Below, piece by piece: positions 1-14,377 of a stretch of 24,849 nucleotides of DNA; position 1 is the first letter of the stretch, and each line of letters starts with the position of its first letter. The DNA comes from a virus. Location: the IMG/VR virus record IMGVR_UViG_3300035698_012504, positions 250,694-275,542 of that record; one strand, written 5' to 3'. The notes under the pieces are model-generated. The model ran no database searches. It had not been told where the DNA came from and saw only the letters and a list, made by a program, of their open reading frames with translations. Made by a program: the position numbers and the translations under genes.

Positions 1-184
1 CATGTGCCTTAGTGATTCTAAGCAATTTAAAAATAGATAAATCCATTTTTCTAAATATACCAGAGAACCACCCAGATACATCGACAATAAGTTTCTTTAA
101 TTGTCTAAGAGAATCTGCTACTCCTTCATCTAATACCATAGACTCCAAAGATTCAAGTTCTATAAAATGTTCTGAAATATACAT
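1..184 (-). CDS. Hypothetical protein, N-terminal part only; the gene continues past the left edge of the window
   Basis: A minus-strand frame is stop-free from nt 184 to nt 1, which is unusual in roughly 30% GC DNA. An ATG sits at 184-182 with a GGAG about 13 nt upstream. My hand translation begins MYISEHFIELESLESMVLDEGVADSLRQLKKLIVDVSGWFSGIFRKMDLSIFKLLRITKAH. The ORF track does not report it because it has no stop inside the window. Confidence 0.35.
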   Translation of the reverse strand, partial: MYISEHFIELESLESMVLDEGVADSLRQLKKLIVDVSGWFSGIFRKMDLSIFKLLRITKAH

Positions 185-224
185 TTATATGATACTACTC
201 CATGTTTAACAGTTTGTCCGCAAA

Positions 225-1298
225 TTATACTATTAAGAAATCGACTACCTTTTCTTTAGTTTCCTCGTTAGATAACATTCCTTCAAATACTTGTCTACAT
301 ATATCGGCATCAAATGCGGCATCATGTAAATTTTCTTGATTGAATTTAACATTATAATAATGAGCTGCCTCTAATAAGGTTGGTTTTTTATATTTAAAAT
401 TAGGGTGGAATTTATTAAGTGGTAATCTCATAACACTTGTATTGGTTCCACATGTACAAAATGAATATGTCCAATGCATCTTAGAGAACCTTCTATCAAA
501 CGTAGAGTTATGTGCTACAAAATGTTTTATACCTTTGCAATATTTTTCTATAGATGTTAAATCATTTCTATAAAATTCGGGATATGTTGCATCTCCTCTA
601 AATTCTGTAATGGTTTTATGAGTTAATCCATTTACAGCTACTGCTCTTGGATCATAACATCCTGACTCAGAATAGTAATATCTAATGTATGGTTCTACGT
701 CATCACAATCAACTACTTCCATCTTATCAAGATCTACAATTGCTCGTATAGCGCAGACAGATAATACATGATCTTTCTTCTCACTCACTCCTGTGGTCTC
801 GAAGTCTATAAATATAAGTGGAATAGATCCCCACGTCTTTATTTTATTAGCTTCTTCTTTAGCATAAGTATCACAGAGTTCGTTATACTTATTTCCTTTA
901 TGAGCCTCAACGTATTCTGCTAATACATTAAATTTCTTGAGGATCTCATTTATTTCTTTCCATAGATTTACATGAGCAATTTCTAATTTTTTACTATTCA
1001 TCCAACCATTACATGACCACTTCTGCAACCAACTATTTATAGAATTACAAACATATTTTGAGTCACTAAAAATCTTTACATTTGTTCCAGGTTCAAAGTT
1101 ATTATTAATATGTACTAATGAACTATAAGCAGCCATTACTTCCATTGCGCTATTTGTAGTATTCTCTTTATTACCTTTTAGTACTTCTAATTCTTTTCCA
1201 TCTTCTAAAACAACTGCTGCCCATCCTCCAGGAAATGTTCCTTTCTGATTATTACCTAAACATGAACCGTCAGTATATACAACTATCTCCTTACTCAT
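225..1298 (-). CDS. Fusion protein: N-terminal RNase HI domain plus C-terminal DnaQ/RNase-T-like DEDDh 3'-5' exonuclease
   Basis: The N-terminus matches RNase HI closely. '[23 protein letters not shown]' aligns with E. coli RnhA '[20 protein letters not shown]'. '[11 protein letters not shown]', '[18 protein letters not shown]' and '[18 protein letters not shown]' align with 'TTNNRMELMAA', 'STDSQYV..GITQWIHNW' and 'GHAGHPENERCDELARAA'. The C-terminus carries the exonuclease motifs: Exo I 'FIDFETTG', Exo II 'FVAHNSTFD' and Exo III '[14 protein letters not shown]' with the DEDDh histidine. Its stop overlaps the next gene by 8 nt. Confidence 0.85.
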   Translation of the reverse strand: [357 protein letters not shown]

Positions 1299-1779
1299 TG
1301 GAGCCCTTTCTAATCTTCGTAATTATCTCAGTAGTAGATATTCCTTCTACTCCAGAAAATAATAATATCTTACCACCATAATTTTCAACAATTTTTCTCT
1401 CTGTTTGAACTACTGTATCAATAGTATAATCGCCACCCTTCACATAATAATTTGGTTTCAATCCTCTTAGAACTTCGTCGAAATCTTTACCGTCCCAAAG
1501 AAGAATATAATCTACAAATTCTAATGATGAAAGAACTAGTGCTCTATCTTCCTGGTTCATTATCGGTCTACCAGGACCTTTATTTTTTACAACAGATTCA
1601 TCAGTATTGAGGCCGACTATAAGTACATCACCAGCGTTGGCTGCTCTCCTAAGGTACTTAATATGACCCGCATGCATTATATCAAAACATCCATTTGTCC
1701 AGACAGTAGTTAAATTTTTACATTTACATTCTTGAGAAATTATTTTCAAAGCATCAAATGATAAAGTCTTCAGTCTCAT
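1291..1779 (-). CDS. Cytidylyl/adenylyltransferase of the HIGH-motif family (RfaE domain II / HldE C-terminal type sugar-phosphate nucleotidyltransferase)
   Basis: The sequence 'TNGCFDIMHAGHIKYL' is the (T/H)xGH nucleotidyltransferase signature. It matches the GCFD(L/I)LHxGH motif of heptose-1-phosphate adenylyltransferase and glycerol-3-P cytidylyltransferase. The size (162 aa) fits this class, and the gene is translationally coupled to the one downstream. Confidence 0.7.
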   Translation of the reverse strand: MRLKTLSFDALKIISQECKCKNLTTVWTNGCFDIMHAGHIKYLRRAANAGDVLIVGLNTDESVVKNKGPGRPIMNQEDRALVLSSLEFVDYILLWDGKDFDEVLRGLKPNYYVKGGDYTIDTVVQTERKIVENYGGKILLFSGVEGISTTEIITKIRKGSNE

Positions 1780-1780
1780 T

Positions 1781-2050
1781 CTAATCCTCTCTAAATTGAG
1801 GTGGTCCAGTTCCTAGTGTCCGACCACTAATTTTATCTGCTATAATCGGAACCCTTGCAGTCATTCCATAATCATTGGGTTCTACTGGAGTACTAGTATT
1901 AATTTTATTGGTTACCTTCGTTGCAAAAGTTCCAAACACTTTCGATGTTTTTAAGCTTCCACAATTAGGGCATTTTTCTTTTGTCTTTCCCTTCTGTAAA
2001 GACTCCCAAGTATTGGTACACTCTTTACATTCAAAGGTAAATAATGGCAT
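1781..2050 (-). CDS. FmdB-family zinc-ribbon protein
   Basis: The N-terminus 'FECKECTNTWESLQK...KCPNCGS' fits the FmdB pattern CxxC...CPxCG. It is followed by a low-complexity tail. Confidence 0.6.
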   Translation of the reverse strand: MPLFTFECKECTNTWESLQKGKTKEKCPNCGSLKTSKVFGTFATKVTNKINTSTPVEPNDYGMTARVPIIADKISGRTLGTGPPQFRED

Positions 2051-2053
2051 AAT

Positions 2054-2446
2054 CTACTCCTTACTATTATAAACATCAGGGTCAAGATCTCTATTCCTAA
2101 GAATAGAAAAAATTATTTTCGGTATTGATGTGAGTTCCAGTTTAGGTACAAATATATCGACTACTTCAAACCCTTCTACATCCATATTAGGAACATCGTT
2201 ACCACTCATTAAAATTCCTACAGTAGTTGGGCTAAATCTTTTAATCTCCCTAATAAAATCTACACCATTCATTCCAGGCATTCTAAAATCTGAAATTACA
2301 ATATCATAAAACGGATGTAGAAGTGTTTCCCTTGGATCAGTTTTTACTTCTATTTCAATATTCTTCATGCTGCTCTCTAAGATATCAACAGCCAAATCTC
2401 TGATCATTTCATCATCGTCTATTAACAGAATCACTATTTTTTCCAT
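2054..2446 (-). CDS. Stand-alone response-regulator receiver domain (CheY-like), with no output domain
   Basis: It has 'ILLIDDDEMIRD' (the acidic pair), 'DIVISDFRMPGMNG' (the phospho-acceptor Asp), 'VGILMSGN' (the conserved Ser/Thr) and 'FVPKL' (the conserved Lys). The protein is 130 aa. A GGAG ribosome-binding site lies upstream at 2453-2458, read on the minus strand. Confidence 0.8.
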   Translation of the reverse strand: MEKIVILLIDDDEMIRDLAVDILESSMKNIEIEVKTDPRETLLHPFYDIVISDFRMPGMNGVDFIREIKRFSPTTVGILMSGNDVPNMDVEGFEVVDIFVPKLELTSIPKIIFSILRNRDLDPDVYNSKE

Positions 2447-2467
2447 AACAATATCTCCTTAATGTTT

Positions 2468-2493
2468 AGAAAAAAAAGGCATTGTGCCTTTTA
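2468..2493 (-). terminator. Rho-independent terminator between the Ro60 gene and the receiver gene
   Basis: Read on the minus strand the sequence is 'AAGGCA-caa-TGCCTT' followed by 7-8 T residues. The stem is 6 bp with a 3-nt loop. It starts immediately at the TAA stop of the Ro60 gene. Because it is flanked by an A-run upstream and a T-run downstream, it could act in both directions. Confidence 0.6.
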
Positions 2494-4110
2494 CGATTGC
2501 TGTGTTTCTATTTGGTTAGAAATGTCGATCATTTTTCTTGCGAACATCAGAACGCTGTGGCTCCAACCTCCAAGAATAAATGTTCTTCTGTAATACTCTG
2601 GAATTATTGTATCCTGATACCCAGCTGTCTGGACTAGGAATACATTAATATTAGGATTCACTTTTGTTCTATATCTATTTACAAGTTTGGGGACATCTAT
2701 ATATTGACCTGAGTTCGGGAATATGAAATCAGAGTAGGACGATTTATCTGATCCATACAATCCACCATGACCAGCTTGCATATCGGAATACACAAACAAG
2801 TTATCATAATGAATTTCCTTCTGAGTTATTTCATCTAAGGCCAACCAGATGCCATGCTCAGTACCGTGACCTATGCTCACGCCAATCTTATTAACTTCTT
2901 TTAGTTGATCAAATACAGAACTTCTTTTTCTTACATCATGGTATTTTAATCTATCCCCAAATACACCAATGACTCCTTCATCGGAAATCATTCCGGTAAG
3001 TATACCCATCATGTTTCCAATCTCCGCAACTGTTACTGATGAGTATTCTCCCGGTCCTGAGTCATAAGCACTACCAGAGTTATCGGTGAGTATTAGAGAT
3101 TTACCTGGAAGCTGAGGAAGCTCAGGCATTGATTTCATTAGACTATCTTCAAGTGCATCTAATATCTTAGCAGAACCAGTTGGATGTGCATTCTTTACTG
3201 CCATATATGCTGTCCAGTATCTAAATGGTAATAACATTCCACGTTCAGCAGATTTAGTCATCTTATCAACAATTAGATCCTGATCCACATCAGCAGTAAT
3301 TAAATTTCTAAGATTTTTAACTATTGCAAAGTGTCCCATAACGCCTAGACACTTATCCCAAGACTCACCTTTGGATCTTAATGCTTCCCAAGTTTCGTCA
3401 TTGAGTTTAAGTTCACCGCCTACTAAAGCACGGATATCATCGTTCCATTGAAAGTCAATCATATTAATAACATCAACAGTTTTGACTTCTCTTGATTCCA
3501 TTCTATATTTAGCAAGTTCATATTTCTTAGCTATTAGAAATCTATCTGCCCAAGATCTCTTAAGACTATTGGGTACAGGTTTTCCAAATGCTTTTAACTG
3601 ATATGCTAATTGAGTAGCTGGCTCGTCCATTCTCCTGAGAATTGAAGGAGCATACTTTCTTATTAGGCCAGTGCCTTTTACTTTTAAATGATTTGCAGCT
3701 CTTACCATTATTACTTGAGGAGTAACTCTTATCTTGTCTTCATTTCTAAGTGCAGCTGCAATATAAAGAGTTCCTTCTGGATCGAATGCTAATGCTTCAT
3801 CAATTGCTCGTTCCATCAATTCAGTTGGCTTAAGACTTCTCCAATCATATTTATCTATTGCATCTAAACTTTCTCTTAAATATTTTATTTGGGTGTCTGA
3901 TAATGTGGATGATTTTCTTGCTTCATCAAAACTTTTCTTTTTTCCAGAACCAGAGGAAGTGTAATACTTCGGTTCTCCAAAGAAACATGACGCAGCCATT
4001 GCTCTTAATCTTACTAGTGGAGTAATGTCAAAACTTGTTCCAGCCATAAAATTTTTGTGGGAATCTTTTCTCACTGCCGTCGACTTGGTCTTGTTAATCG
4101 TTGCCATCAA
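2491..4110 (-). CDS. rsr: Ro60/Rsr orthologue: TROVE domain plus von Willebrand A domain
   Basis: The length (539 aa) is close to human Ro60 (538 aa) and Deinococcus Rsr. 'RAMAASCFFGEPKYYTS' matches Ro60 'RFLCFGSEGGTYYI'. The vWA MIDAS motif 'LILTDNSGSA' lies near residue 335, matching Ro60 'LLAVDVSASM' near residue 375. The later vWA segments 'IGHGTEHG' and 'VFLVQTAG' correspond to 'PAGGTDCS' and 'VFIVFTDNET'. The start codon is TTG or ATG at 4110 or 4107, with an AAAGGA ribosome-binding site. Confidence 0.8.
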   Translation of the reverse strand: MMATINKTKSTAVRKDSHKNFMAGTSFDITPLVRLRAMAASCFFGEPKYYTSSGSGKKKSFDEARKSSTLSDTQIKYLRESLDAIDKYDWRSLKPTELMERAIDEALAFDPEGTLYIAAALRNEDKIRVTPQVIMVRAANHLKVKGTGLIRKYAPSILRRMDEPATQLAYQLKAFGKPVPNSLKRSWADRFLIAKKYELAKYRMESREVKTVDVINMIDFQWNDDIRALVGGELKLNDETWEALRSKGESWDKCLGVMGHFAIVKNLRNLITADVDQDLIVDKMTKSAERGMLLPFRYWTAYMAVKNAHPTGSAKILDALEDSLMKSMPELPQLPGKSLILTDNSGSAYDSGPGEYSSVTVAEIGNMMGILTGMISDEGVIGVFGDRLKYHDVRKRSSVFDQLKEVNKIGVSIGHGTEHGIWLALDEITQKEIHYDNLFVYSDMQAGHGGLYGSDKSSYSDFIFPNSGQYIDVPKLVNRYRTKVNPNINVFLVQTAGYQDTIIPEYYRRTFILGGWSHSVLMFARKMIDISNQIETQQS

Positions 4111-4565
4111 ACTATCCTTTCACGTCACTTCGGATCCACGGACCCGAACTTTAAAAATGGGGAGAATATCGCAAGGGCGATTTTTTCGCTTTTGATCCTT
4201 ATTCAAATGAAGTAACCCTTACATTCACTACCCCGAAAAATATATAAATAATATAAATTTAAGAAAAAACAGGAAAAGCTCGATCTGGTGTTGGTCTTCG
4301 CTGGCGCTCACTAGCCGATGGCTAGCAGCGTTCCAGCTCCATGAAGTAACCAAATCAATCACTACCTGTAAAAATCAACGCGAGATAAATAGCGACAGAG
4401 TATATGTTTCATTTTAAAGAAGTAACTCTATCTTTCACTACTCGCTAAAAACATTGGGAAAAAATCAACTAGGTGTTTGTTTCATTTAAAGGTGAAGTAA
4501 CCCAGTCATTCACTACCCAAAAAAAGATAAATCATCGTTCTCACTATTTAATATATATAGTATAT
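4111..4565. ncRNA. 455-bp non-coding locus with four direct repeats and a GC-rich hairpin; candidate structured RNA or RNAs, possibly Y-RNA-like, with strand unresolved
   Basis: No ORF of 60 aa or more is present. Four copies of the motif GAAGTAAC-N(6-8)-TCACTAC(C)-N(3-5)-AAAAA begin at 4209, 4343, 4419 and 4494. A roughly 60% GC imperfect hairpin sits at 4300-4337 in otherwise AT-rich DNA. The region lies directly upstream of the Ro60/TROVE gene. Read on the minus strand each repeat is TTTTT..GGTAGTGAAT..GGTTACTTCA. Confidence 0.4.
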
Positions 4566-5867
4566 CTAAACCTGGTAAACCCATTCATCATCTTCGAAAA
4601 TATTTTTTGTATCTATTATAATATCTGAGTATTCTTTTATAATACTATAATCCACATTATCATGATCAACTGCAATTATTACAGCATCAGATCGTTTACA
4701 TATTGTCTTGAGATCTTCTGATTCAAAACTATAATGTTTATCTACATAAGGATCATGATAAGTAATGTTAGCCCTTCTGAAAAGCAACTGTTCCAATATA
4801 GCAGTGCCGGTAGAGTTTCTAACGTCTCCCACATTCTTTTTGTAAGCCAATCCAATAATAGCAATGTTAGCTCCTTTCACAGGTTTGTCCGCAGAATCTA
4901 AAATCCATTTAATCTTGTCTATTAAAATATCTAATGATTTTTTATTGACGCCTGTACATGCGTCTATGATGGGGGTATCGACCCCATGTTTATTCGATTC
5001 ATATTTAAAATAATATGGATCTACTCCTATACATTCTCCGCCTATAGATGCAGTTGGATAGAATGGAGAAAATCCAAATGGTTTTGTACTTGCCAATTCT
5101 ATCACTTCTTTTAAACTAATTTCCATTTGATCGCAGAATTGTTTGACTTCATTCATAAAAGATATGTTTACAAATCTATACATATTTTCTAATAGCTTTG
5201 TTAGTTCTGCTACATGAGTTCCTGAAGCTTCTACTACTTCATCTACAATATTTAAATATAGTGCTTTTGCAATAGCAGTCGAAACTGGATCAACTCCCCC
5301 AACAATCTTTGGAGTATTTTCTAAAGTATATAATTTATTTCCTGGGTCTACTCGTTCAGGACTAAATGCAACATATCCTTCGAATCCTCTAGATCTTGTT
5401 GGGTTTAACTTGTCATCTTTAAAACGCCAGAAGTTTTTGTTTGTAAACCCAGGATACACTGTACTTTCTAATACAATTAAAAAATCAGACTTCCCATAAC
5501 TTACAATGTTATTATGAATAGTGTCAATCAATATTTCTAAGTTCTTTACTTCTGGTTTATTATTAATGGTTGGGGTTGGAACACATATGATTATACAATC
5601 ACAATCTACTAAGATTTTTTTCGGAGGCTTTTCCCAACATGTAAATAATTCCACACCGTGATTTAAAATATCTAGTTCTTCATCACTTATATAACTTATA
5701 TCACACTTACCCGATTTAAGTTTTTTAATCTTTCTTTCATCTACATCAAATCCCCTGACTCTGAATCCTGCCTTTGCGAATTTAAGGGCCAACGGCAAAC
5801 CTACGTAGCCAAGTCCAATTATACCAATTTTAGCTTTCTTGGTTTCTATTTTTTCTAATAATTCCAT
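4566..5867 (-). CDS. Nucleotide-sugar dehydrogenase (UDP-glucose/GDP-mannose dehydrogenase family, WbpA/WecC-like UDP-N-acetyl-hexosamine dehydrogenase)
   Basis: It has an N-terminal Rossmann motif 'KIGIIGLGYVGLPLA'. The catalytic-cysteine motif 'IGGECIGVDPYYF' matches the 'GGHCIPVDPYY' of the WbpA/WecC branch. The C-terminal domain contains 'IIGLAYKKNVGDVRNS'. The protein is 433 aa. Confidence 0.85.
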   Translation of the reverse strand: MELLEKIETKKAKIGIIGLGYVGLPLALKFAKAGFRVRGFDVDERKIKKLKSGKCDISYISDEELDILNHGVELFTCWEKPPKKILVDCDCIIICVPTPTINNKPEVKNLEILIDTIHNNIVSYGKSDFLIVLESTVYPGFTNKNFWRFKDDKLNPTRSRGFEGYVAFSPERVDPGNKLYTLENTPKIVGGVDPVSTAIAKALYLNIVDEVVEASGTHVAELTKLLENMYRFVNISFMNEVKQFCDQMEISLKEVIELASTKPFGFSPFYPTASIGGECIGVDPYYFKYESNKHGVDTPIIDACTGVNKKSLDILIDKIKWILDSADKPVKGANIAIIGLAYKKNVGDVRNSTGTAILEQLLFRRANITYHDPYVDKHYSFESEDLKTICKRSDAVIIAVDHDNVDYSIIKEYSDIIIDTKNIFEDDEWVYQV

Positions 5868-5879
5868 TGCAGTCCTTTC

Positions 5880-6143
5880 TTATTCATCGCCTTCTTTATT
5901 GGAAACAAACTCACTGATGTAAACATTCCTCAAACACTCAAAATTATGTTTCAACTCTGGAATCTTCTCAAAAAATAAAGAGAGTTCTGTAATCAATCCC
6001 TCTATTTCTGCCATCTCGTTTAGATTAGTTAGATCATAATTAATGGTTCTGGTAAACGTTGGATTTAAACCCTGCTTAGTTTGAATTAACTTACTAATCT
6101 TCGAATCTAAATCCAATAATTTTTTAATGATATTTTCAATCAT
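5880..6143 (-). CDS. Hypothetical protein
   Basis: An 87-aa ORF with the ribosome-binding site GAGAGGAAAAAG, tightly packed between the capsid and dehydrogenase genes. I recognise no motif. Confidence 0.45.
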   Translation of the reverse strand: MIENIIKKLLDLDSKISKLIQTKQGLNPTFTRTINYDLTNLNEMAEIEGLITELSLFFEKIPELKHNFECLRNVYISEFVSNKEGDE

Positions 6144-6170
6144 TACTTTTTCCTCTCTATATACATGTGA

Positions 6171-6203
6171 AGGAAGCCCAAGACCAAAGATCTCAGGCTT
6201 CCT
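6171..6203 (-). other. Stable hairpin immediately 3' of the major capsid gene; possibly a stabiliser of the mRNA 3' end or a weak terminator
   Basis: The 8-bp stem pairs aggaagcc (6171-6178) with ggcttcct (6196-6203) around a 17-nt loop. It sits 40 nt downstream of the capsid stop codon. No clean U-tract follows on the minus strand. Confidence 0.35.
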
Positions 6204-6243
6204 ATAATGTTTATAATTTTTAGTATTATATTAATTTATTGAA

Positions 6244-7710
6244 TTATGCACCAGTATCGGAATCTGTAATGGTTAGTGCAGCCAATCCTTCAGGTCTTAT
6301 TACCTTAACCGCATAACGACTTAGGATTGTAAGTGATGGATTGTTACCAAGAGGATAAGGAATTAAGAGTGCTGGTACGTAAGGGGCATACACGCAAACC
6401 GCTTTCATCATTTCTGGGCTTCTGTGTTTCATAATTACTGTACCCTGAGGAACAATACTAGAAACAAGAATCTTCCATTTACCTGAAGATACTGTAGCTG
6501 AACGGTATCCGACATCTCCACCGGCAACACTATCGCCAACATATTCGAAGCCGTTAAGGGATTCAAATACTGCTGCATCAAGTGGGTTACATGCTAATGT
6601 ATTAGCAGGACCGATAAGAGAGGTGTTATACACCTGTGCGGAAAGCTTATTCAGTGTTGGAATAATATTTTCATACCATGCCTTACGACCCCATGTGAAT
6701 CCAGTTGGAGGATTCAGATCAAATGAGTCAGTATGGCTAGATGGGTTGTTGGAACTATTAGCAGTAATAAGCGTACTAATTAGTTGGTTATCAATGTCAA
6801 GAGCAATCTGCTCACCTATGATATTTACAAGCTCACTTTGAAGCTTAATATCATAAAGAGCCTGAATGTCTTGTTCCATATTCACTGTCCATTCTGCAGA
6901 GATTCGTCTGTCTACGACTTTGAATCTTATCTTTTCAACGTCGAACTTGACAGTCGGGTTAATTGTGTTTTCTTCTAGAGACGCATATCCCTGGAAGCCT
7001 ATTTCAGCTACTTCGCCTGTCGCTGAACTCCAGGTCAGTAGACCGTTTAAGTAATCAACATGACCACTTACGGTATCTGGACCTGCATTTGTGGTAACGT
7101 CAAAAGAGAAATTACCGTCGACATCGGCTTGCCAATCAACGGCAACGTATCCACCAGTTTGATCATAAATACCGGTGATTTTGAAATCTTTTTCAAGGTG
7201 TGAGTCAGTGCTATCCAGTGAGACCTCAGCTAGCACATCGTGATTTTGACCCTCAGTTGCTGTAGCAGCTACGCTGATACCAATAGAAGGACCACGAGAG
7301 ATATCTGTGGAGGTTGAAGGGAATGCATGATCATAGCCACTATCAACGTGACGTTTGAATGAAGGTCTTATAAATCCTTTGATTACATCGGGCTTATCAA
7401 TAGGCATTACATTAACTAATTCTTTCGCGACTAGTTTCGGATAGAATACGCGAAGTATAGGTAGTGTCATTGTCTCATATGGATTCAGTTGGAACATGCT
7501 GTTTTCCATCAGGTTTAGACGAGTATTCTCGGCTAATTGACTGAAGTCATCAGCTTGGTCCGTAGGTAGACCTTCGGCTAGGTTCTTTGCATAGTACTTA
7601 AAGCTCTCTGGGCTTGCAAGCATCTGACGGAAACCTTGAGGCGAACGTACGTCTAGACCAGTGTTGCGTTTTGTAGCATTATATGTTTCTTGTAGTAAAT
7701 GTTGCATCAT
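6244..7710 (-). CDS. Major capsid protein, T4 gp23-like
   Basis: 'VCVYAPYVPAL' matches T4 gp23 'GIYYAPYVALT'. 'AEWTVNMEQDIQALYDIKLQSELVNIIGEQIALDIDNQLI' matches gp23 'AAYSIELAQDLRAVHGMDADAELSGILATEIMLEINREVV'. The C-terminal 'VKVIRPEG' matches 'RRVYVKGI'. The protein is 488 aa. Confidence 0.8.
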   Translation of the reverse strand: MMQHLLQETYNATKRNTGLDVRSPQGFRQMLASPESFKYYAKNLAEGLPTDQADDFSQLAENTRLNLMENSMFQLNPYETMTLPILRVFYPKLVAKELVNVMPIDKPDVIKGFIRPSFKRHVDSGYDHAFPSTSTDISRGPSIGISVAATATEGQNHDVLAEVSLDSTDSHLEKDFKITGIYDQTGGYVAVDWQADVDGNFSFDVTTNAGPDTVSGHVDYLNGLLTWSSATGEVAEIGFQGYASLEENTINPTVKFDVEKIRFKVVDRRISAEWTVNMEQDIQALYDIKLQSELVNIIGEQIALDIDNQLISTLITANSSNNPSSHTDSFDLNPPTGFTWGRKAWYENIIPTLNKLSAQVYNTSLIGPANTLACNPLDAAVFESLNGFEYVGDSVAGGDVGYRSATVSSGKWKILVSSIVPQGTVIMKHRSPEMMKAVCVYAPYVPALLIPYPLGNNPSLTILSRYAVKVIRPEGLAALTITDSDTGA

Positions 7711-7734
7711 TTTACTTACTCCTTTTTTATTTTT

Positions 7735-8127
7735 CTAAAATTTGTCTGGAATTTTTAAACTTAATCGTTCCTCAATATTCCGTAGACTTTCAAAGTCTTT
7801 ATTATCAATTCCTTGTAACATGTTTACAATATTAATTCTGCTCTTCCCTATTAAAACTCCTTCTCGATTTAAGGTATTAATCAGGGATAGAACCCGCTTC
7901 AAAGCTTTCTCTTTACTAAATTCTTTAGTTAGATCAGTTAGTTCGGTTTTTATATCAATTATCTTAGCTCTGTAGCTCTTACTCTCTTCCTTCGCCTCCT
8001 CAAGTTTCGACTGAGCTCTCTCGATTTCCTCATCAGTCTTTGTCAATACCACCTGAGAAAGATAAAATAGTAAATTCTCATTACTTATTAATTTTCCATC
8101 AACTCTATTTAGCGACTTTACTATCAT
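7735..8127 (-). CDS. Hypothetical coiled-coil protein; could be scaffold-like or an assembly factor, located just upstream of the capsid gene
   Basis: A 130-aa protein with a Glu/Lys-rich heptad-like central region ('EEIERAQSKLEEAKEESKSYRAKIIDIKTELTDLTKEF'). The conserved motif TGAGGACAAATT overlaps its ribosome-binding site. Confidence 0.45.
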   Translation of the reverse strand: MIVKSLNRVDGKLISNENLLFYLSQVVLTKTDEEIERAQSKLEEAKEESKSYRAKIIDIKTELTDLTKEFSKEKALKRVLSLINTLNREGVLIGKSRINIVNMLQGIDNKDFESLRNIEERLSLKIPDKF

Positions 8128-8466: not shown

Positions 8467-9885
8467 CTATGAGATACTAGGAGTATATGCTAATCTAAAT
8501 CCTGTTAAAGACCCGATTGAGGCGTCTGTTCTAACCAAACGTAAATTAAAGAACCCAGTCTCATTTCTAGGTATCTTCCAATATCCTCCTCTTGTAGGCC
8601 TGATCGACCCTCTATAAACACTAGTATGGCCATAACTATGTCCATTTAAATCTCTACACCAAGAAGGATCAATTAAAGCTTGTTGTAATAAATATTTATC
8701 TGATTGTGGGACATTACTATCATCATCATATGCTGCCGTAGTTGGCATATCTGTCCATTCACATCGTTTACTACCATTTATAGTATATAAATTTGAAGAA
8801 ACATCTAATTGTGGAGTATATGCTCCGCCTTTATTATATGCCGCAGAAGATATTATGTCTGTTCCAGCAGCGGCAGAAATAGTAGATGTTTTATTATATC
8901 TTGGTATAAATAATTGCCCATTATTAACAGCAAACCCGTTAATCCATTCTTCTTTATTTCCAATTGCATCTGCTATACCTGTAACTTCTCCATTATGTGT
9001 CCAACTTAATGGGCCACTACCAGTGTAGGTTGTACCATCTCCAGATTCTGTTCCAGGTACTAATCCATCAACTCTTACTCCTGACTGATAATTATAATTT
9101 GGACTTATATTATCACCGGCGAAATTTGGATCATATCTTCCATACCATGTATTTCCACCTGGATTATGTCCAGAAGCTAGACCATCAAATACCATAGCTG
9201 ACCATTCCCAATTCGTCATCATATGCCATCCAACTCCTTTATTAGAAGCTGCCGCAGCGGAATCTAAATAAGAAATTCCTGAAGTAGGATTGAATCCAGG
9301 CATAGAGAAATAAGAATTTCCTTCTGATGCAGATATAAACTGACCTATAAATATTTCATCATGGTAATCAAAAGTACCATCTGATGCTTTATATTTAAAT
9401 GCAGGGTGATAACCACTACCACAATAATTAGTAGACTTAATTAAATATTCCTGATTGGGATAAGAGGTAAATGTTCCCTCGTCTATCCCTTGTATTGCTA
9501 AATCTATCAGGTATACATAATCATCAGTTACTGAATCTACCTGATACCTATTCGGAGTTGGCATCACAGAGTAAAGAGTATTTGTAGCACCTACTGATGG
9601 TTCGGGAGGAACATAATGAACATAATCTCCCTCCTCTATTGGACGAATACCATCTGATTTAATTCTATTATCTATTTGGAAATTAATTATTCCTAATGGA
9701 TGTATTTCATCGGCATAATAATCAAGGATAGGTATTTTGTTAAAATTTTTATCCTCTACTTCAAATCTATTCAATATATACATATATGACGGCACACCAT
9801 TGGTGTCATATAAAACTGTTATCTTACCACCAGTCAATGATTCGACTGAAGATCTTAATCCATCTTTTACAAAAATATTAGGCAT
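8467..9885 (-). CDS. Paralogue A of a duplicated structural or carbohydrate-binding protein carrying FGE/SUMF1-like (C-type-lectin-fold) signature motifs
   Basis: It shares many blocks with ORF 9916..11415: 'TVLYD..G.PS.MY', 'GYHPAFKYK' with 'GIHPAFICG', 'EIFIGQF' with 'EIFVGQF', 'GWHMMTNWEWSAMVF' with 'GWHAMNLWEWSAIAF', and 'YTGSGPLSWTHNGEVTGIADAIGNKEEWINGF' with 'YTGSGPKSFRHNNDFTGISDIVSPNGEFIGGIF'. The 'T.NWEWSA' and 'GNKEEW' blocks resemble the FGE motifs 'PTEAEWEYAA' and 'GNVWEW'. Confidence 0.55.
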   Translation of the reverse strand: MPNIFVKDGLRSSVESLTGGKITVLYDTNGVPSYMYILNRFEVEDKNFNKIPILDYYADEIHPLGIINFQIDNRIKSDGIRPIEEGDYVHYVPPEPSVGATNTLYSVMPTPNRYQVDSVTDDYVYLIDLAIQGIDEGTFTSYPNQEYLIKSTNYCGSGYHPAFKYKASDGTFDYHDEIFIGQFISASEGNSYFSMPGFNPTSGISYLDSAAAASNKGVGWHMMTNWEWSAMVFDGLASGHNPGGNTWYGRYDPNFAGDNISPNYNYQSGVRVDGLVPGTESGDGTTYTGSGPLSWTHNGEVTGIADAIGNKEEWINGFAVNNGQLFIPRYNKTSTISAAAGTDIISSAAYNKGGAYTPQLDVSSNLYTINGSKRCEWTDMPTTAAYDDDSNVPQSDKYLLQQALIDPSWCRDLNGHSYGHTSVYRGSIRPTRGGYWKIPRNETGFFNLRLVRTDASIGSLTGFRLAYTPSIS

Positions 9886-11756: not shown

Positions 11757-12986
11757 CTACTCTAATCCTTTCTTTGTAACAGTCCATTTAAATCTAATTT
11801 TATCTACATCTCCCCTACTTTGAACTAAAAATCCAGTTCTATATCTCTCTACAGGTTCAACTGCAGCAAATTGGTGTGGGGATCCTGAATAGGAAATAAC
11901 ATCTATATCTATATTATAATCTTGTGTACCTATGTCTCTATCAAAATTTATCATTGTAGCTCTTGGTGAAAAATGAACGTTGGCTTGAGTTATAGCATCG
12001 TTCTCCCACGCCGTAGACATATAATATGGATCAATATTATAAGTAGGAAAAAAGTCCTCAGAGGCGCTGAGTGCATTCTGAACTGGTAACCCATATTTTC
12101 CATTTCCAAACTCATCTCGAATTATATCATGTGAAAGCACATTTGTAAGATTATTCCCAGTATGATTTGCAGGTACATGATAAGCATATGCTACAATAAC
12201 ATGTTCTTTAGTTATCACTTTAACATCAGAATCTATCTCAGATAAATCTGTTTGCCACCCATCTATTTCAAACGGACCTAAGTCATAAGCTTTAACTAAT
12301 TCTCCAACTACGGATCCAGAATATGGATTAGCAGAGTAGGGACCTAGTAATTGTGGTAGATATCTAAATGAATTGTTTATCTGTTCTTCTGAAAATAAAG
12401 TCGAAACTGTATCTATTACATAATTATTTTCGCCAGCCAAATACGGATATCCAACAGCAGCTAGATAATAAACAACAGGATATGATTCATCATTTTCAGG
12501 AATAGTTAAATATGAACCATTATCAATCGGATGTAATTTTCCATCAACGTATACATAACTATAATCTAACCCAGCTGGATATATCTTCCTACTTGTTAAT
12601 ACATTTTCTGGAGTATACCATGTCTGATTTATTACACCTGTTGCGACTGCGGCTGGGGTTTCAGAGTACGCAGCAATACCTCTATTATATATAGTATCTT
12701 CCCCATTTATTATTTCTCGAGATATATTAGATAAATTCTTAGATACTTTGCCAACCATATACAATGCATATGTTGACATTAATTGTGAGTCAGCAGCATT
12801 TAAAAATGCGACTCCACCATCATCTGAACCATTTCCTATTCGTAAAGTATTATCTGATACACTGACACCACTCTGTGGGCCGCTATCAAATGTTTTATTC
12901 AATGTAAATGCTGGTTCGCCTCTGACCAATAAGTGATCATCCACATAGGTCGTGTCACCTCTTTTTAATTTTATAAGAGTTGCCAT
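11757..12986 (-). CDS. Tail-fibre / receptor-binding-like protein
   Basis: The N-terminus 'MATLIKLKRGDTTYVDDHLLVRGEPAFTLNKT...LRIGNGSD' matches the widespread conserved N-terminal module of phage tail-fibre proteins (M-A-x-I-x-L-(K/R)-R-G...GEP...DT..L.IGDG). The remainder is Tyr/Asn/Gly-rich, consistent with a beta-rich fibre. Confidence 0.55.
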   Translation of the reverse strand: MATLIKLKRGDTTYVDDHLLVRGEPAFTLNKTFDSGPQSGVSVSDNTLRIGNGSDDGGVAFLNAADSQLMSTYALYMVGKVSKNLSNISREIINGEDTIYNRGIAAYSETPAAVATGVINQTWYTPENVLTSRKIYPAGLDYSYVYVDGKLHPIDNGSYLTIPENDESYPVVYYLAAVGYPYLAGENNYVIDTVSTLFSEEQINNSFRYLPQLLGPYSANPYSGSVVGELVKAYDLGPFEIDGWQTDLSEIDSDVKVITKEHVIVAYAYHVPANHTGNNLTNVLSHDIIRDEFGNGKYGLPVQNALSASEDFFPTYNIDPYYMSTAWENDAITQANVHFSPRATMINFDRDIGTQDYNIDIDVISYSGSPHQFAAVEPVERYRTGFLVQSRGDVDKIRFKWTVTKKGLE

Positions 12987-12997
12987 TTTATTTTCTC

Positions 12998-14377
12998 CTA
13001 ACTTAATTCTGTAAGACTAATTTCGCTAAATACCAATCCATCTATTGAGCCTCTATATGTTACTCCCTGAGTAAAATCAGTTATTCCGAGTAACTCTGTA
13101 ACTAAACCTTCAGGGCGTCCATATTCGTCTCCAACTGGCTGGTTCCATTCCCACCCATGCCCAATCATTTCTAATGTAATTTTATGATTAACAGATTCAG
13201 GCATTACAAGAATTTCATCCACCGTATGTTCTACACCATATGCATATGTATTTTGGCTAACCTCTCCCAATATATTTAAATTGTTAGTCAAATCTCCAGA
13301 CGTTACTCCGAATATGCCTTCATCGGCTGCACACCCTATTGCGCTATATGGTTGATCCCCATAATAAATTTTAGTATTGAGAGTGAAATTTATATTGTCT
13401 GATCCATAATGAATATATTTTATTCTCAGATGGTAAGCTTTTCCGCCAATTACATTTACATATGTGGTATAAAGAAAAACACTACTTTCGCTGGTATGTC
13501 TACGAAGAACTTTATAATTATTTCCATATCTAATATACATACTAAGATCAAATTCTACATCAAAAAGAGTTCTATGAGAAGGGACCACAGGCCACGGAAA
13601 TAGATTTATATCTTCTCCTAGTTCTTCTCCATTCACTTCATCCCATTGCCAGATTTCTTGTCTAGTAATAGAGGAATCCTCTGGGTGTACAATTGTTATA
13701 CCGCTCTCTTGAATTAAATTTGGTACTAAACTATCATTTAAATCTATTTGTATAATTCCAAGTACACATATATATTCTTTAAACTTCTCATAGGTGTTCT
13801 CATTAACCAAACATAAGTATGCAGATTTATATAAATCAGGATTATAATATACTACAGCCATAACATACTGAGTACTTCTTTTGATCTGTGGACAATAACT
13901 TCCAGGTTGAGTAGGATCTCCGGATTCATGTAAATATGAATTCCTAGCATTATATTGGGTTGTTACTTGTCCCTGTATTGGATGAGGATTGCTATAAACA
14001 GTTAGATAAGTTCTTTGTGTTATCTCTATTAAAGTATTCTTTATAACACAATTTCCGCGAGTTACTGCAATTCTAATTGCTTGTCCAGAATTTACAAAAG
14101 CGTTATCTTCAGTAGACCCTCTCTCTTGATTAAGTATCTCGTTTGTGTCTGATGTAATTATTGTCAACGGGCCATATATATACGCAAAAGTAGAAGTTAA
14201 TTCTTCTGGCTGTGCGCAGACACCAGTCGCTTTCTTTAAATTAGATTCATTTGAAGTAGTGTATTCTGGAGAAAATGCTTGTACAATTTTTCCTATGTTC
14301 TCCGCACTATTTTCAGAGAAAGTATCTAATATAGATGTTTGCTCTGGCCTAACTTTAGGATACTGTTTTGCTGGCAT
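12998..14377 (-). CDS. Hypothetical virion protein, probably fibre- or baseplate-associated
   Basis: A 459-aa Asn/Tyr/Thr-rich protein placed between the fibre-like gene and the other structural genes. I recognise no catalytic motif. Confidence 0.45.
   Translation of the reverse strand: MPAKQYPKVRPEQTSILDTFSENSAENIGKIVQAFSPEYTTSNESNLKKATGVCAQPEELTSTFAYIYGPLTIITSDTNEILNQERGSTEDNAFVNSGQAIRIAVTRGNCVIKNTLIEITQRTYLTVYSNPHPIQGQVTTQYNARNSYLHESGDPTQPGSYCPQIKRSTQYVMAVVYYNPDLYKSAYLCLVNENTYEKFKEYICVLGIIQIDLNDSLVPNLIQESGITIVHPEDSSITRQEIWQWDEVNGEELGEDINLFPWPVVPSHRTLFDVEFDLSMYIRYGNNYKVLRRHTSESSVFLYTTYVNVIGGKAYHLRIKYIHYGSDNINFTLNTKIYYGDQPYSAIGCAADEGIFGVTSGDLTNNLNILGEVSQNTYAYGVEHTVDEILVMPESVNHKITLEMIGHGWEWNQPVGDEYGRPEGLVTELLGITDFTQGVTYRGSIDGLVFSEISLTELS

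Follow-up and report, generated by a model that had tools for sequence, protein, structure and literature searches.

The stretch of viral DNA considered here covers 24,849 nucleotides (nt), from position 250,694 to 275,542 of the IMG/VR virus record IMGVR_UViG_3300035698_012504, and is referred to as the window. Its minus strand carries a gene for a predicted Ro60 protein, preceded in transcription order by 455 nt devoid of open reading frames (ORFs; 4565-4111, minus strand), in which four direct repeats with 68–75% identity are spaced by 75, 76 and 134 nt. Ro60/Y-RNA particles are conserved from bacteria to humans. To our knowledge, the role of these particles in phages has barely been explored, with one structural study so far. 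An initial annotation of this DNA had proposed that Ro60 and the genes that follow it form an RNA-processing machine. The elements of the Ro60 region are, in the order of transcription:

4545..4561, minus strand: conserved A/T-rich 17-mer ACTATATATATTAAATA, directly 3' of the stop codon of a sugar-dehydrogenase gene
4454..4520, minus strand: Y-RNA-like unit A, 67 nt; stem UUGGG/CCCAA, 5' loop strand UAGUGA, second stem, then a U run
4380..4445, minus strand: Y-RNA-like unit B, 66 nt, a paralogue of unit A with the same architecture; stem GCGAG/CUCGC
4269..4369, minus strand: Y-RNA-like unit C, 101 nt; stem ACAGG/CCUGU, common core plus a G+C-rich apical hairpin insert of 54 nt
4159..4234, minus strand: Y-RNA-like unit D, 76 nt; stem GGGG/CCCC, 3' loop strand AUUCU, then a U run
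4128..4147, minus strand: hairpin UUCGGGUCCGUGGAUCCGAA, read from the sequence, between unit D and the Ro60 ribosome-binding site
4120-4115, minus strand: Ro60 ribosome-binding site AAAGGA
2491..4107, minus strand: Ro60 orthologue (TROVE + vWA), 538 amino acids (aa), ATG at 4107 (ORF 2491-4107/4110)
2466..2492, minus strand: intrinsic-terminator-like hairpin AAAAGGCA-CAA-UGCCUUUU followed by U8, overlapping the Ro60 stop codon

The four units lie 52–413 nt upstream of the Ro60 ATG, on the strand shared with Ro60, and have a common architecture. It consists of a G/C terminal stem of 4–5 base pairs (bp), an internal loop with UAGUGA on its 5' side, and a second stem of about 7–12 bp. The terminal stem is closed by a near-invariant G-C pair and is flanked by a conserved G-UAGUGA strand on the 5' side and a conserved UUCUC-like strand on the 3' side. 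The second stems covary, differing in sequence from unit to unit yet remaining complementary (ACUGGGU/ACCUAGU, AUAGAGU/ACUCUGU, GAUUUGGU/ACCAGAUC and UAAGGGU/GCCCUUG). The unit loop always opens with GUUACUUC (UACUUC after the second stem); in unit A it reads UACUUCACC..AAAUGAAAC..CAC. On the 3' side, the U-rich UUCUC-like strand is followed by the closing stem and a run of five to six U. The 5' motifs of the units are GGGUAGUGA, GAGUAGUGA, AGGUAGUGA and again GGGUAGUGA.

The combination TAGTGA-N7-8-GTTACTTC occurs four times in the window, always on the minus strand within 4209-4515, for 0.00 occurrences expected from 100 shuffles, and GTTACTTC is unique to the repeat locus within the 24.8 kb when both strands are considered. 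Unit C satisfies a strict stem-closure rule and folds with −42.9 kcal/mol (z = −4.58), which was equalled by none of 200 shuffles. The window was also scanned with a covariance model built without its sequences. The three best matches were unit B (26.5 bits, E = 1.2e-4; fold z = −2.64), unit A (23.8 bits, E = 6e-4) and unit D (19.2 bits, E = 9e-3), and nothing else was found below E = 1. Unit C was missed because of its long insert, as the model misses units of this kind.

The same design was found, on the Ro60 strand beside Ro60 homologues, in dozens of other phages, where tRNA-like inserts are frequent, and in some bacteria. A scan of IMG/VR with a single Ro60 sequence gave nothing, and an alignment-based scan gave 80 further phage loci. 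The set used for gene co-occurrence comprised 82 other phage Ro60 loci with 8 kb on either side, of which 56 were left after clustering at 85%. In the 924 kb of these 56 non-redundant loci, 107 copies of the motif pair YAGYGR-N6-10-GUUACUUC were counted on the Ro60 strand, compared with 4 on the opposite one. Sixty-two of the pairs fall within 1 kb upstream of Ro60, and 38 of the 56 loci have one to five copies within 2.5 kb. No pair was found in 147 kb of control loci from relatives of the capsid gene. A perfect downstream complement of 7 bp plus 5 bp, in the expected order, accompanied 76 of 128 core hits, against 6–16 in 20 shuffles. With the covariance model, all 50 hits at E ≤ 0.1 in 1.34 Mb were on the Ro60 strand. 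Whole-unit alignments made with MAFFT were misregistered on the 3' side and yielded no pairs in RNAalifold; an anchored core alignment was used instead, from which the covariance model was also built. In the anchored alignment of 54 units, the window's excluded, 11 of 12 pairs vary on both sides, with 46 extra pair types. As this alignment is N-padded and fitted to the structure, it illustrates covariation rather than proves it, and the shuffle-based closure test is the unbiased evidence.

YrlA-like RNAs were reported beside Ro60 in 254 bacteria and 22 phages by Chen et al. 2014 (PMC4201824). They have GNCGAA(N)G close to the 5' end; every species has one or more with a tRNA-like domain, and further Y RNAs are of a short hairpin type. 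The two Y RNAs that precede rsr in M. smegmatis are cleaved from a single precursor (PMC4201824). Y RNAs lie within 2 kb of rsr, several per genome (PMC4201824, PMC12135203). The window locus resembles the bacterial Rsr loci with YrlA/YrlB or Yrn1/Yrn2 (Salmonella Typhimurium, Mycobacterium smegmatis, Deinococcus radiodurans), which likewise have small RNAs of 65–130 nt within 2 kb and on the Ro60 strand, several per locus, located upstream in M. smegmatis. Bacterial Y RNAs also pair their 5' and 3' ends in a stem that contains the conserved helix to which the protein binds, with a large loop or effector module beyond it, and short hairpin-type members (YrlB, Yrn2) coexist with tRNA-like ones. 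The window units, of 66–101 nt, differ by having G-UAGUGA in place of GNCGAA(N)G and by lacking the tRNA-like domain; the Rfam YrlA model (RF02553) has no match in the window. Units A and B are somewhat below the published 80–130 nt. In addition, the window module lies in the structural-gene region of a remote T4-like phage rather than in an rtcBA RNA-repair operon.

The difference in the 5' motif is bridged by the other loci. Over the phages, the 5' strand is graded from GGCGAAGCGG, which holds the published motif, through GGAAGUGG and GGAAGUGA to GGYAGUGA/GGGUAGUGA, at a constant distance to GUUACUUC. This series indicates that the window motif is a diverged form of the CGAA signature, and that the window RNAs are diverged members of the known Y-RNA family rather than a new kind. 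Bacillus phage G, which is listed among the phages with YrlA-like Y RNAs (PMC12135203, citing Chen 2014), has five units of the form GAAGCGG/GAUGCGG-N8-GUUACUUC upstream of the gene for gp540 (TROVE). The loop start, the stem layout and the multi-unit array are those of the window, with AUCUC as the 3' strand. Unlike in the window, the 5' motifs are near the CGAA signature, one unit has a tRNA-like T arm, and the part of the 498-kb genome that holds the locus is tRNA/tmRNA-rich. In locus L002, the Ro60 of which is 53% identical to that of the window, four units with like motifs occupy the 540 nt upstream of Ro60; a tRNA-like T arm is found inside two of them and inside a fifth unit, located among tRNA genes further downstream. 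One tRNA-containing relative scores 29.7 bits against Rfam YrlA, for a gathering score of 69. The motif is also present in bacteria, just upstream of the TROVE gene in Opitutus, Verrucomicrobiales and Saccharibacteria. These cases came from a scan of 596 Gb of genomes with a 14-nt motif that was swamped by chance matches, three of the 120 returned loci having an adjoining TROVE gene, so that no statistics were drawn from it.

Several features of the RNAs in these loci were noted in passing. The loop UACUUCAC(Y)UU..AAAUGAAA(C)..CAC is common to short Y-like RNAs of the window (4380-4520), L219 (5696-5860) and L221 (1433-1500). The presence of UACUUCAC..AAAUGAAAC..CAC in units A and B and in units of L219 and L221 suggests a conserved short subclass. 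The UUCA and UGAA of this loop can pair as a small hairpin, and the loop may be a recognition site for a partner of the Ro60 ribonucleoprotein (RNP). Some Y scaffolds contain near-complete tRNA-like sequences, which score up to 58.9 bits with the Rfam tRNA model and are placed after GUUACUUC and before the second stem's 3' strand (L045 9663-9785, in which the tRNA-model match is 9692-9764; L045 9841-9894 and 9962-10032; L002 9508-9579 and 12208-12280). Programs that search for tRNAs would label them as ordinary phage tRNAs. RNAs of about 210 nt with Y-type closing stems are found in several phage Ro60 loci (L050 7463-7671, L056 836-1048, L061 5254-5475, L066 7447-7662, L077 7449-7664, L083 7455-7677 and L085 6030-6238, with similar ones at L054 3773 and L089 7152). 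They contain a large, well-conserved internal module (…GGTTTAATTCAC…GACTAGAAAT…GGGAACGATTACCTC…) that is not tRNA-like, resembled nothing else considered here, and may be an undescribed structured domain grafted on the Y scaffold.

The 538-aa protein is identified as Ro60 by its profile, its predicted fold and its MIDAS (metal-ion-dependent adhesion site) motif. The match to Pfam TROVE (PF05731) scores 18.5 bits (E = 1e-3), for a cut-off of 23 bits. Among 1923 homologues found at E < 1e-20, most have PF05731, as do most of those that are 50–56% identical to the window protein. The AF2 model (pLDDT 81.8, pTM 0.82) was compared with the PDB using Foldseek; the first 13 matches were all Ro60/Rsr structures (9KOP, 9L5Y, 9NFA, 2I91, 1YVP, 2NVO, 9NEN), with about 500 aligned columns and a probability of 1.00, followed by vWA domains. 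The MIDAS motif of the vWA domain, D342-N343-S344-G345-S346 (DxSxS type), is invariant across an alignment of 29 sequences. The protein also matches PHROG 850, 'RNA-binding protein', with E = 4e-38. Its closest relative from a cultured phage is gp540 of Bacillus phage G, with 38.9% identity over the full length. Its best relative of solved structure is the Ro60 of Thermus phage phiLo (9KOP, 9L5Y), matched by the family profile with E = 1.9e-26 and by the fold with E = 1e-15 and TM scores of 0.58–0.66, at about 20% identity.

The boundaries of the region were compared with those in a sister phage (L094-L096), the capsid protein, Ro60 and nuclease fusion (see below) of which are 78, 52 and 49% identical to those of the window. 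The 17-mer ACTATATATATTAAATA is identical at the equivalent place of the sister phage (L094 7222-7238), while the flanking proteins are only 43–52% identical. It is unique in the window, with no second copy within two mismatches, and overlaps a weak sigma-70-like sequence, TTTACC-18-TATATT (9/12 match). The 17-mer is regarded as a candidate promoter for the Y-RNA/Ro60 unit. No convincing T4-type late promoter (TATAAATA) was seen by eye upstream of the array or before the receiver gene that follows Ro60. At the other end, the position of the terminator-like hairpin is occupied in L094 by a different hairpin, GAGGUC-GUAA-GACCUC, also followed by U8. The hairpin UUCGGGUCCGUGGAUCCGAA, between unit D and the ribosome-binding site, is not a terminator since no U run follows it; it is possibly a processing or stabilising element. 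This stable hairpin contains GGUCCG, reminiscent of the GGUCCGA motif of metazoan Y RNAs, which is probably a coincidence.

It is proposed, with a probability of about three in four, that the segment 4561-2466 is a self-contained phage Ro60/Y-RNA module, made of the candidate promoter, the four RNAs, Ro60 and the terminator. In this reading, the repeat locus is a tandem series of small Y-RNA-like genes, four in number, that go with the adjoining phage Ro60 gene. A promoter near the 17-mer (4561-4545) would drive transcription of units A to D and then of the Ro60 messenger, up to the hairpin and its U8. The Y RNAs would be freed by processing or by termination at their own U runs. By analogy with Deinococcus, Salmonella, Mycobacterium and phiLo, they would bind the Ro60 ring through the conserved bulged helix closed by the G-C pair, and their variable A/U-rich loops may serve as tethers or gates that recruit a partner to the ring.

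The mechanistic template is the Ro60/Y RNA/PNPase complex (RYPER) of D. radiodurans, in which a 3'-5' exoribonuclease is held at the Ro60 ring by the Y RNA, and structured RNA is threaded and degraded. The Ro60 of phiLo is reported to bind two upstream Y-like RNAs and to form a ternary complex with the PNPase of the host (PMC12135203). The phiLo locus is thus like that of the window in having the Y-like RNAs (Yrl1/Yrl2) just upstream of a phage Ro60; it has two RNAs with a CGAA bulge, against the window's four with UAGUGA. Judging from RYPER and phiLo, the partner of the window Ro60 would most likely be a host exoribonuclease such as PNPase, and structured or damaged RNAs may be degraded or remodelled during infection. 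In this form, the Ro60-centred RNA module supposed by the initial annotation is retained, and the repeat locus, the nature of which had not been recognised, would be its RNA component.

The surroundings of the module are as follows. On the minus strand, over 225-6143, the capsid gene is followed in transcription order by a series of ORFs and elements; besides those given above, the genes are:

6244-7710, minus strand: capsid gene (PF07068, Gp23)
between the capsid gene and the dehydrogenase gene, minus strand: ORF of 87 aa
4566-5867, minus strand: nucleotide-sugar (NDP-sugar) dehydrogenase (TIGR03026, 346 bits)
2054..2446, minus strand: stand-alone receiver (REC), 130 aa (PF00072, 51.2 bits for a cut-off of 30.2, E = 2e-13)
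1781..2050, minus strand: FmdB-family CxxC..CxxC zinc ribbon, 89 aa (PF09723, Zn_ribbon_8, 41.5 bits, E = 1e-10; TIGR02605, 43.7 bits)
1291..1779, minus strand: RfaE-domain-II-like heptose-1-phosphate adenylyltransferase (RfaE-II), 162 aa (PF01467, E = 2e-19; TIGR02199, 164 bits; PHROG 7878)
225..1298, minus strand: fusion of RNase HI (residues 1-155) and a DEDDh 3'-5' exonuclease (160-350), 357 aa (Pfam)

The earlier domain calls for the RNase HI-exonuclease, the FmdB ribbon and the receiver were borne out by Pfam, and that for Ro60 by other means. The description of five consecutive minus-strand elements was correct as to their presence and positions, but there are six and the five are not consecutive: the RfaE-II gene (1291-1779), which separates the zinc-ribbon gene from that of the RNase H fusion, had been overlooked. 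Likewise, the block is downstream of the capsid gene with the dehydrogenase gene (4566-5867) and the 87-aa ORF in between. The reference to T4 core genes was a loose description, since the capsid protein is a remote gp23 homologue with at most 24% identity to that of any cultured phage, which makes this phage only remotely T4-like. Cultured phages gave no megablast match to positions 1-8000 of the window.

The four genes that follow the terminator are tightly packed, with gaps of 3, 1 and −8 nt. In the receiver, D10/D11 and the phospho-acceptor D53 align with D12/D13 and D57 of CheY. This alignment ends at residue 75, and, for the Thr/Ser and Lys-Pro conserved in the receiver switch, the window protein has VPK instead of KP; the L094 orthologue (33% identity) has T and KP. 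No histidine kinase gene was found in the window. The orthologue of the FmdB ribbon in L094 is 38% identical, and L094 has no homologue of RfaE-II. The window has two genes of nucleotide-sugar metabolism (4566-5867 and 1291-1779) in the same variable slot, flanking and interrupting the block.

The fusion protein matches RNase_H (PF00075) with 113 bits (E = 1e-32) and RNase_T (PF00929) with 44.5 bits (E = 3e-11). Its RNase HI residues D9, E, D, H and D (in the contexts amEvm, fsDsk, eaHkg and lcDty for the last four) align with D10, E48, D70, H124 and D134 of E. coli RnhA. The Exo I DxE (fiDfEttg), Exo II D (hnstfDrrf) and Exo III Hx4D motifs align with D12/E14, D103 and H162/D167 of DnaQ. The exonuclease domain is closer to PolC/DnaQ models (E = 4e-9 to 5e-7) than to RNase T (6e-5), and matches PHROG 192, 'DNA polymerase exonuclease subunit', with E = 4e-20. 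Its DnaQ/PolC-like character hints at DNA rather than RNA as the substrate. A search among 5.8e9 proteins returned ten at E < 1e-10, and one other, that of the sister phage, has the fusion. In E. coli, the genes rnhA and dnaQ are adjacent, and RNase HI and a DEDDh epsilon-type exonuclease are thus also found together; in the window the pair is fused into one 357-aa phage protein. Judged by its domains, the fusion is most likely a DNA replication or repair nuclease, which would most plausibly act on RNA:DNA hybrids and DNA 3' ends (primers, R-loops) and not with Ro60. With PADLOC, the exonuclease matched a generic Cas-associated DEDDh model only, and no other protein matched a defence system.

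Whether the downstream genes belong with Ro60 was judged from their distribution. In L094, the capsid gene is followed by an ORF of 101 aa, two inserted genes (DNA ligase and 250 aa), the sugar dehydrogenase gene, a pair of Y-like units, and then TROVE, Response_reg, Zn_ribbon_8 and RNase_H/RNase_T. The two Y-like units of the sister phage have neither the CGAA signature nor a tRNA-like domain. L094 and the window are collinear on both sides of the block, and four further downstream genes match in order. Shared ancestry is therefore sufficient to account for the gene order, and no functional explanation is needed. Downstream of the block, L094 15283-21056 codes for 2592 aa of a protein with faint EF-hand matches, the gene being truncated by the locus end. 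Its homologue in the window phage is a large gene, likewise truncated at an end (at least 622 aa; L097 5849-7714, just past the window start), and the giant protein is probably a tail or fibre component.

The order Ro60, receiver, zinc ribbon and RNase H/exonuclease recurs in this one sister phage only. The 82 other phage Ro60 loci were searched at E < 0.01 with twelve queries, namely the proteins of the window and of L094 together with CheY, RnhA and DnaQ of E. coli and Spo0F of B. subtilis. No receiver, FmdB ribbon, RNase HI or DnaQ-like exonuclease was found within 8 kb of Ro60, while the positive controls were recovered. The Pfam-annotated contexts of four close Ro60 homologues are also devoid of receiver, zinc ribbon, RNase H and exonuclease; they hold an RNA ligase, a CCA-adding enzyme, a cold-shock protein and tRNAs. 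An enzyme of the CCA-adding/poly(A) polymerase family (PF01743) lies a few kb from Ro60 in L219 (2739-4151) and L221 (1-917), and the L002 Ro60 locus (1-464, 12951-13730) has a cluster of tRNAs along with genes for an RNA ligase and a metallo-beta-lactamase of the Apyc1-like (anti-Pycsar) type. The contexts of L002, L219 and L221 point to a tRNA/RNA-repair and anti-defence neighbourhood rather than one of receivers and RNase H.

Relatives of the capsid gene give a similar picture. In seven of them (54–68% identity, with an eighth at 38%), no gene of the block is found within 10 kb of the capsid gene. The conserved downstream genes of 280 and 622 aa resume 5.5–7.5 kb past the capsid gene in L007, L011 and L012, and L010 has a 505-aa homologue about 5 kb past it. 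On this comparison of gene content, the block lies in a hypervariable slot between conserved structural genes, with a content that differs among relatives. The terminator, the gap in co-occurrence, the variable slot, the DnaQ-like exonuclease and the sugar genes together argue that the functional module is the Ro60/Y-RNA unit. The receiver, the FmdB ribbon, RfaE-II and the fusion are best read as a separate, tightly packed accessory cluster, and as neighbours only of Ro60.

A number of observations weigh against a self-contained Y-RNA module. None of the four window units has the 5' motif GNCGAA(N0-1)G. No tRNA-like element was detected in the window with ARAGORN, or at 4000-4700 with the Rfam tRNA and YrlA models at E ≤ 10. 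Rfam searches at the gathering score on the window and at E ≤ 10 on 4000-4700 returned no Y RNA or other credible family. Units A and D fold weakly on their own (z = −1.65 and −1.49). As regards the separation from the downstream cluster, the order of Ro60, receiver, zinc ribbon and fusion has survived roughly 50% protein divergence (33–52% identity) and two nearby insertions. Moreover, only about 25 nt, with no obvious promoter, separate the terminator from the start of the receiver gene. Transcripts of the Ro60 unit may therefore read through into the cluster, so that the two could still be functionally coupled.

Such coupling would be needed for a machine along the lines of the initial annotation, in which Ro60, the Y-like RNAs, the receiver, the ribbon and the fusion would together degrade or mature RNA, the phage's own exonuclease replacing PNPase under the control of a phosphorelay. 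The conserved order in the sister phage at 33–52% identity despite neighbouring insertions, the receiver-to-fusion gaps of 3, 1 and −8 nt, and possible co-transcription by read-through, given that there is no space for a sigma-70 promoter after the terminator, are all consistent with it. The phospho-acceptor and all nuclease residues are intact, and bacterial Ro60 works with 3'-5' exoribonucleases (PMC4201824, PMC12135203). This machine is nevertheless unlikely. The partners are missing from the 82 other Ro60 loci and from the contexts of the four close homologues, and the order is kept in a single sister phage that is collinear far past the block; apart from this exception, the genes are largely distributed independently of one another. 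A terminator is kept between Ro60 and the receiver in both phages, a sugar-nucleotide gene is inserted within the block in one of the two, and the window has no histidine kinase. The exonuclease is DnaQ/PolC-like and its fused partner is a nuclease for RNA:DNA hybrids. PNPase, the partner in RYPER, is phosphorolytic and has KH/S1 domains, in contrast to the hydrolytic DEDDh DnaQ-like domain fused to RNase HI. We know of no DEDDh DnaQ-like–RNase HI enzyme that associates with Ro60. The Ro60-exonuclease machine gated by the receiver is thus not supported.

A variant confined to this lineage, in which the Ro60/Y-RNA particle was rewired to the phage effectors (receiver, ribbon and fusion) through read-through past a leaky terminator, is quite unlikely as well. 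The receiver would then be a phospho-switch or an esterase for cyclic phosphates of the 'cRec' type, and the Y RNAs without tRNA-like domain and CGAA would tether the fusion nuclease, instead of host PNPase, to Ro60. If true, this would amount to a self-sufficient viral machine for RNA surveillance or anti-defence.

The receiver could also be, instead of a phosphorelay switch, a 'cRec'-type enzyme, a phosphoesterase of receiver fold proposed to resolve 2',3'-cyclic phosphate RNA ends in the RNA-repair systems of phages; together with Ro60 and the Y RNAs, it would repair RNAs cut by host anticodon nucleases and the like. Iyer et al. 2021 (PMC7824862) described stand-alone divergent receivers of phages and cells that keep the catalytic aspartates and whose links are with RNA ligases and in no case with histidine kinases, and treated TROVE proteins as an RNA-repair platform. 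The window receiver has no output domain and no nearby kinase, and adjoins Ro60 in two phages; an RNA ligase or CCA-adding enzyme is found near other Ro60 loci. This role is very unlikely, as the receiver is fairly conventional: it matches PF00072 with 51 bits, is found by E. coli CheY, and has classical response regulators as its best NCBIfam matches. The window block has no RNA ligase, kinase-phosphatase or 2H/HD enzyme, and no other locus has a receiver beside Ro60.

That the repeats are DNA-level elements (operator or iteron sites, a Ro60 promoter array, or a degenerate CRISPR-like or tRNA-remnant array), as their A+T-richness, their location directly upstream of a gene, the T run before each and the lack of a matching known RNA family might suggest, is hardly credible, since a downstream complement accompanies every copy and compensatory changes are seen in both stems, the strand bias across phages is strict (107 vs 4), and the units of relatives enclose tRNA-like modules. 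A CRISPR-like array, iterons and a promoter array were rejected because of the compensatory stems and the strand bias; the spacing of 75, 76 and 134 nt and the repeat identity of 68–75% do not fit a CRISPR array either.

The Ro60/Y-RNA module proposed here adds a compact case from a remote T4-like phage, whose four short Y RNAs have neither the tRNA-like domain nor the CGAA motif. Its lineage-specific neighbours offer a cheap test of the use of a virus-encoded nuclease by a phage Ro60, which the present evidence does not favour. The main value of the locus is to reveal that a large phage-borne family of Y RNAs escapes the current Rfam models. The searchable signatures G-YAGYGR, GUUACUUC and UUCUC, together with the covariance model, could serve to annotate the Y RNAs of dozens of uncultured phage genomes.

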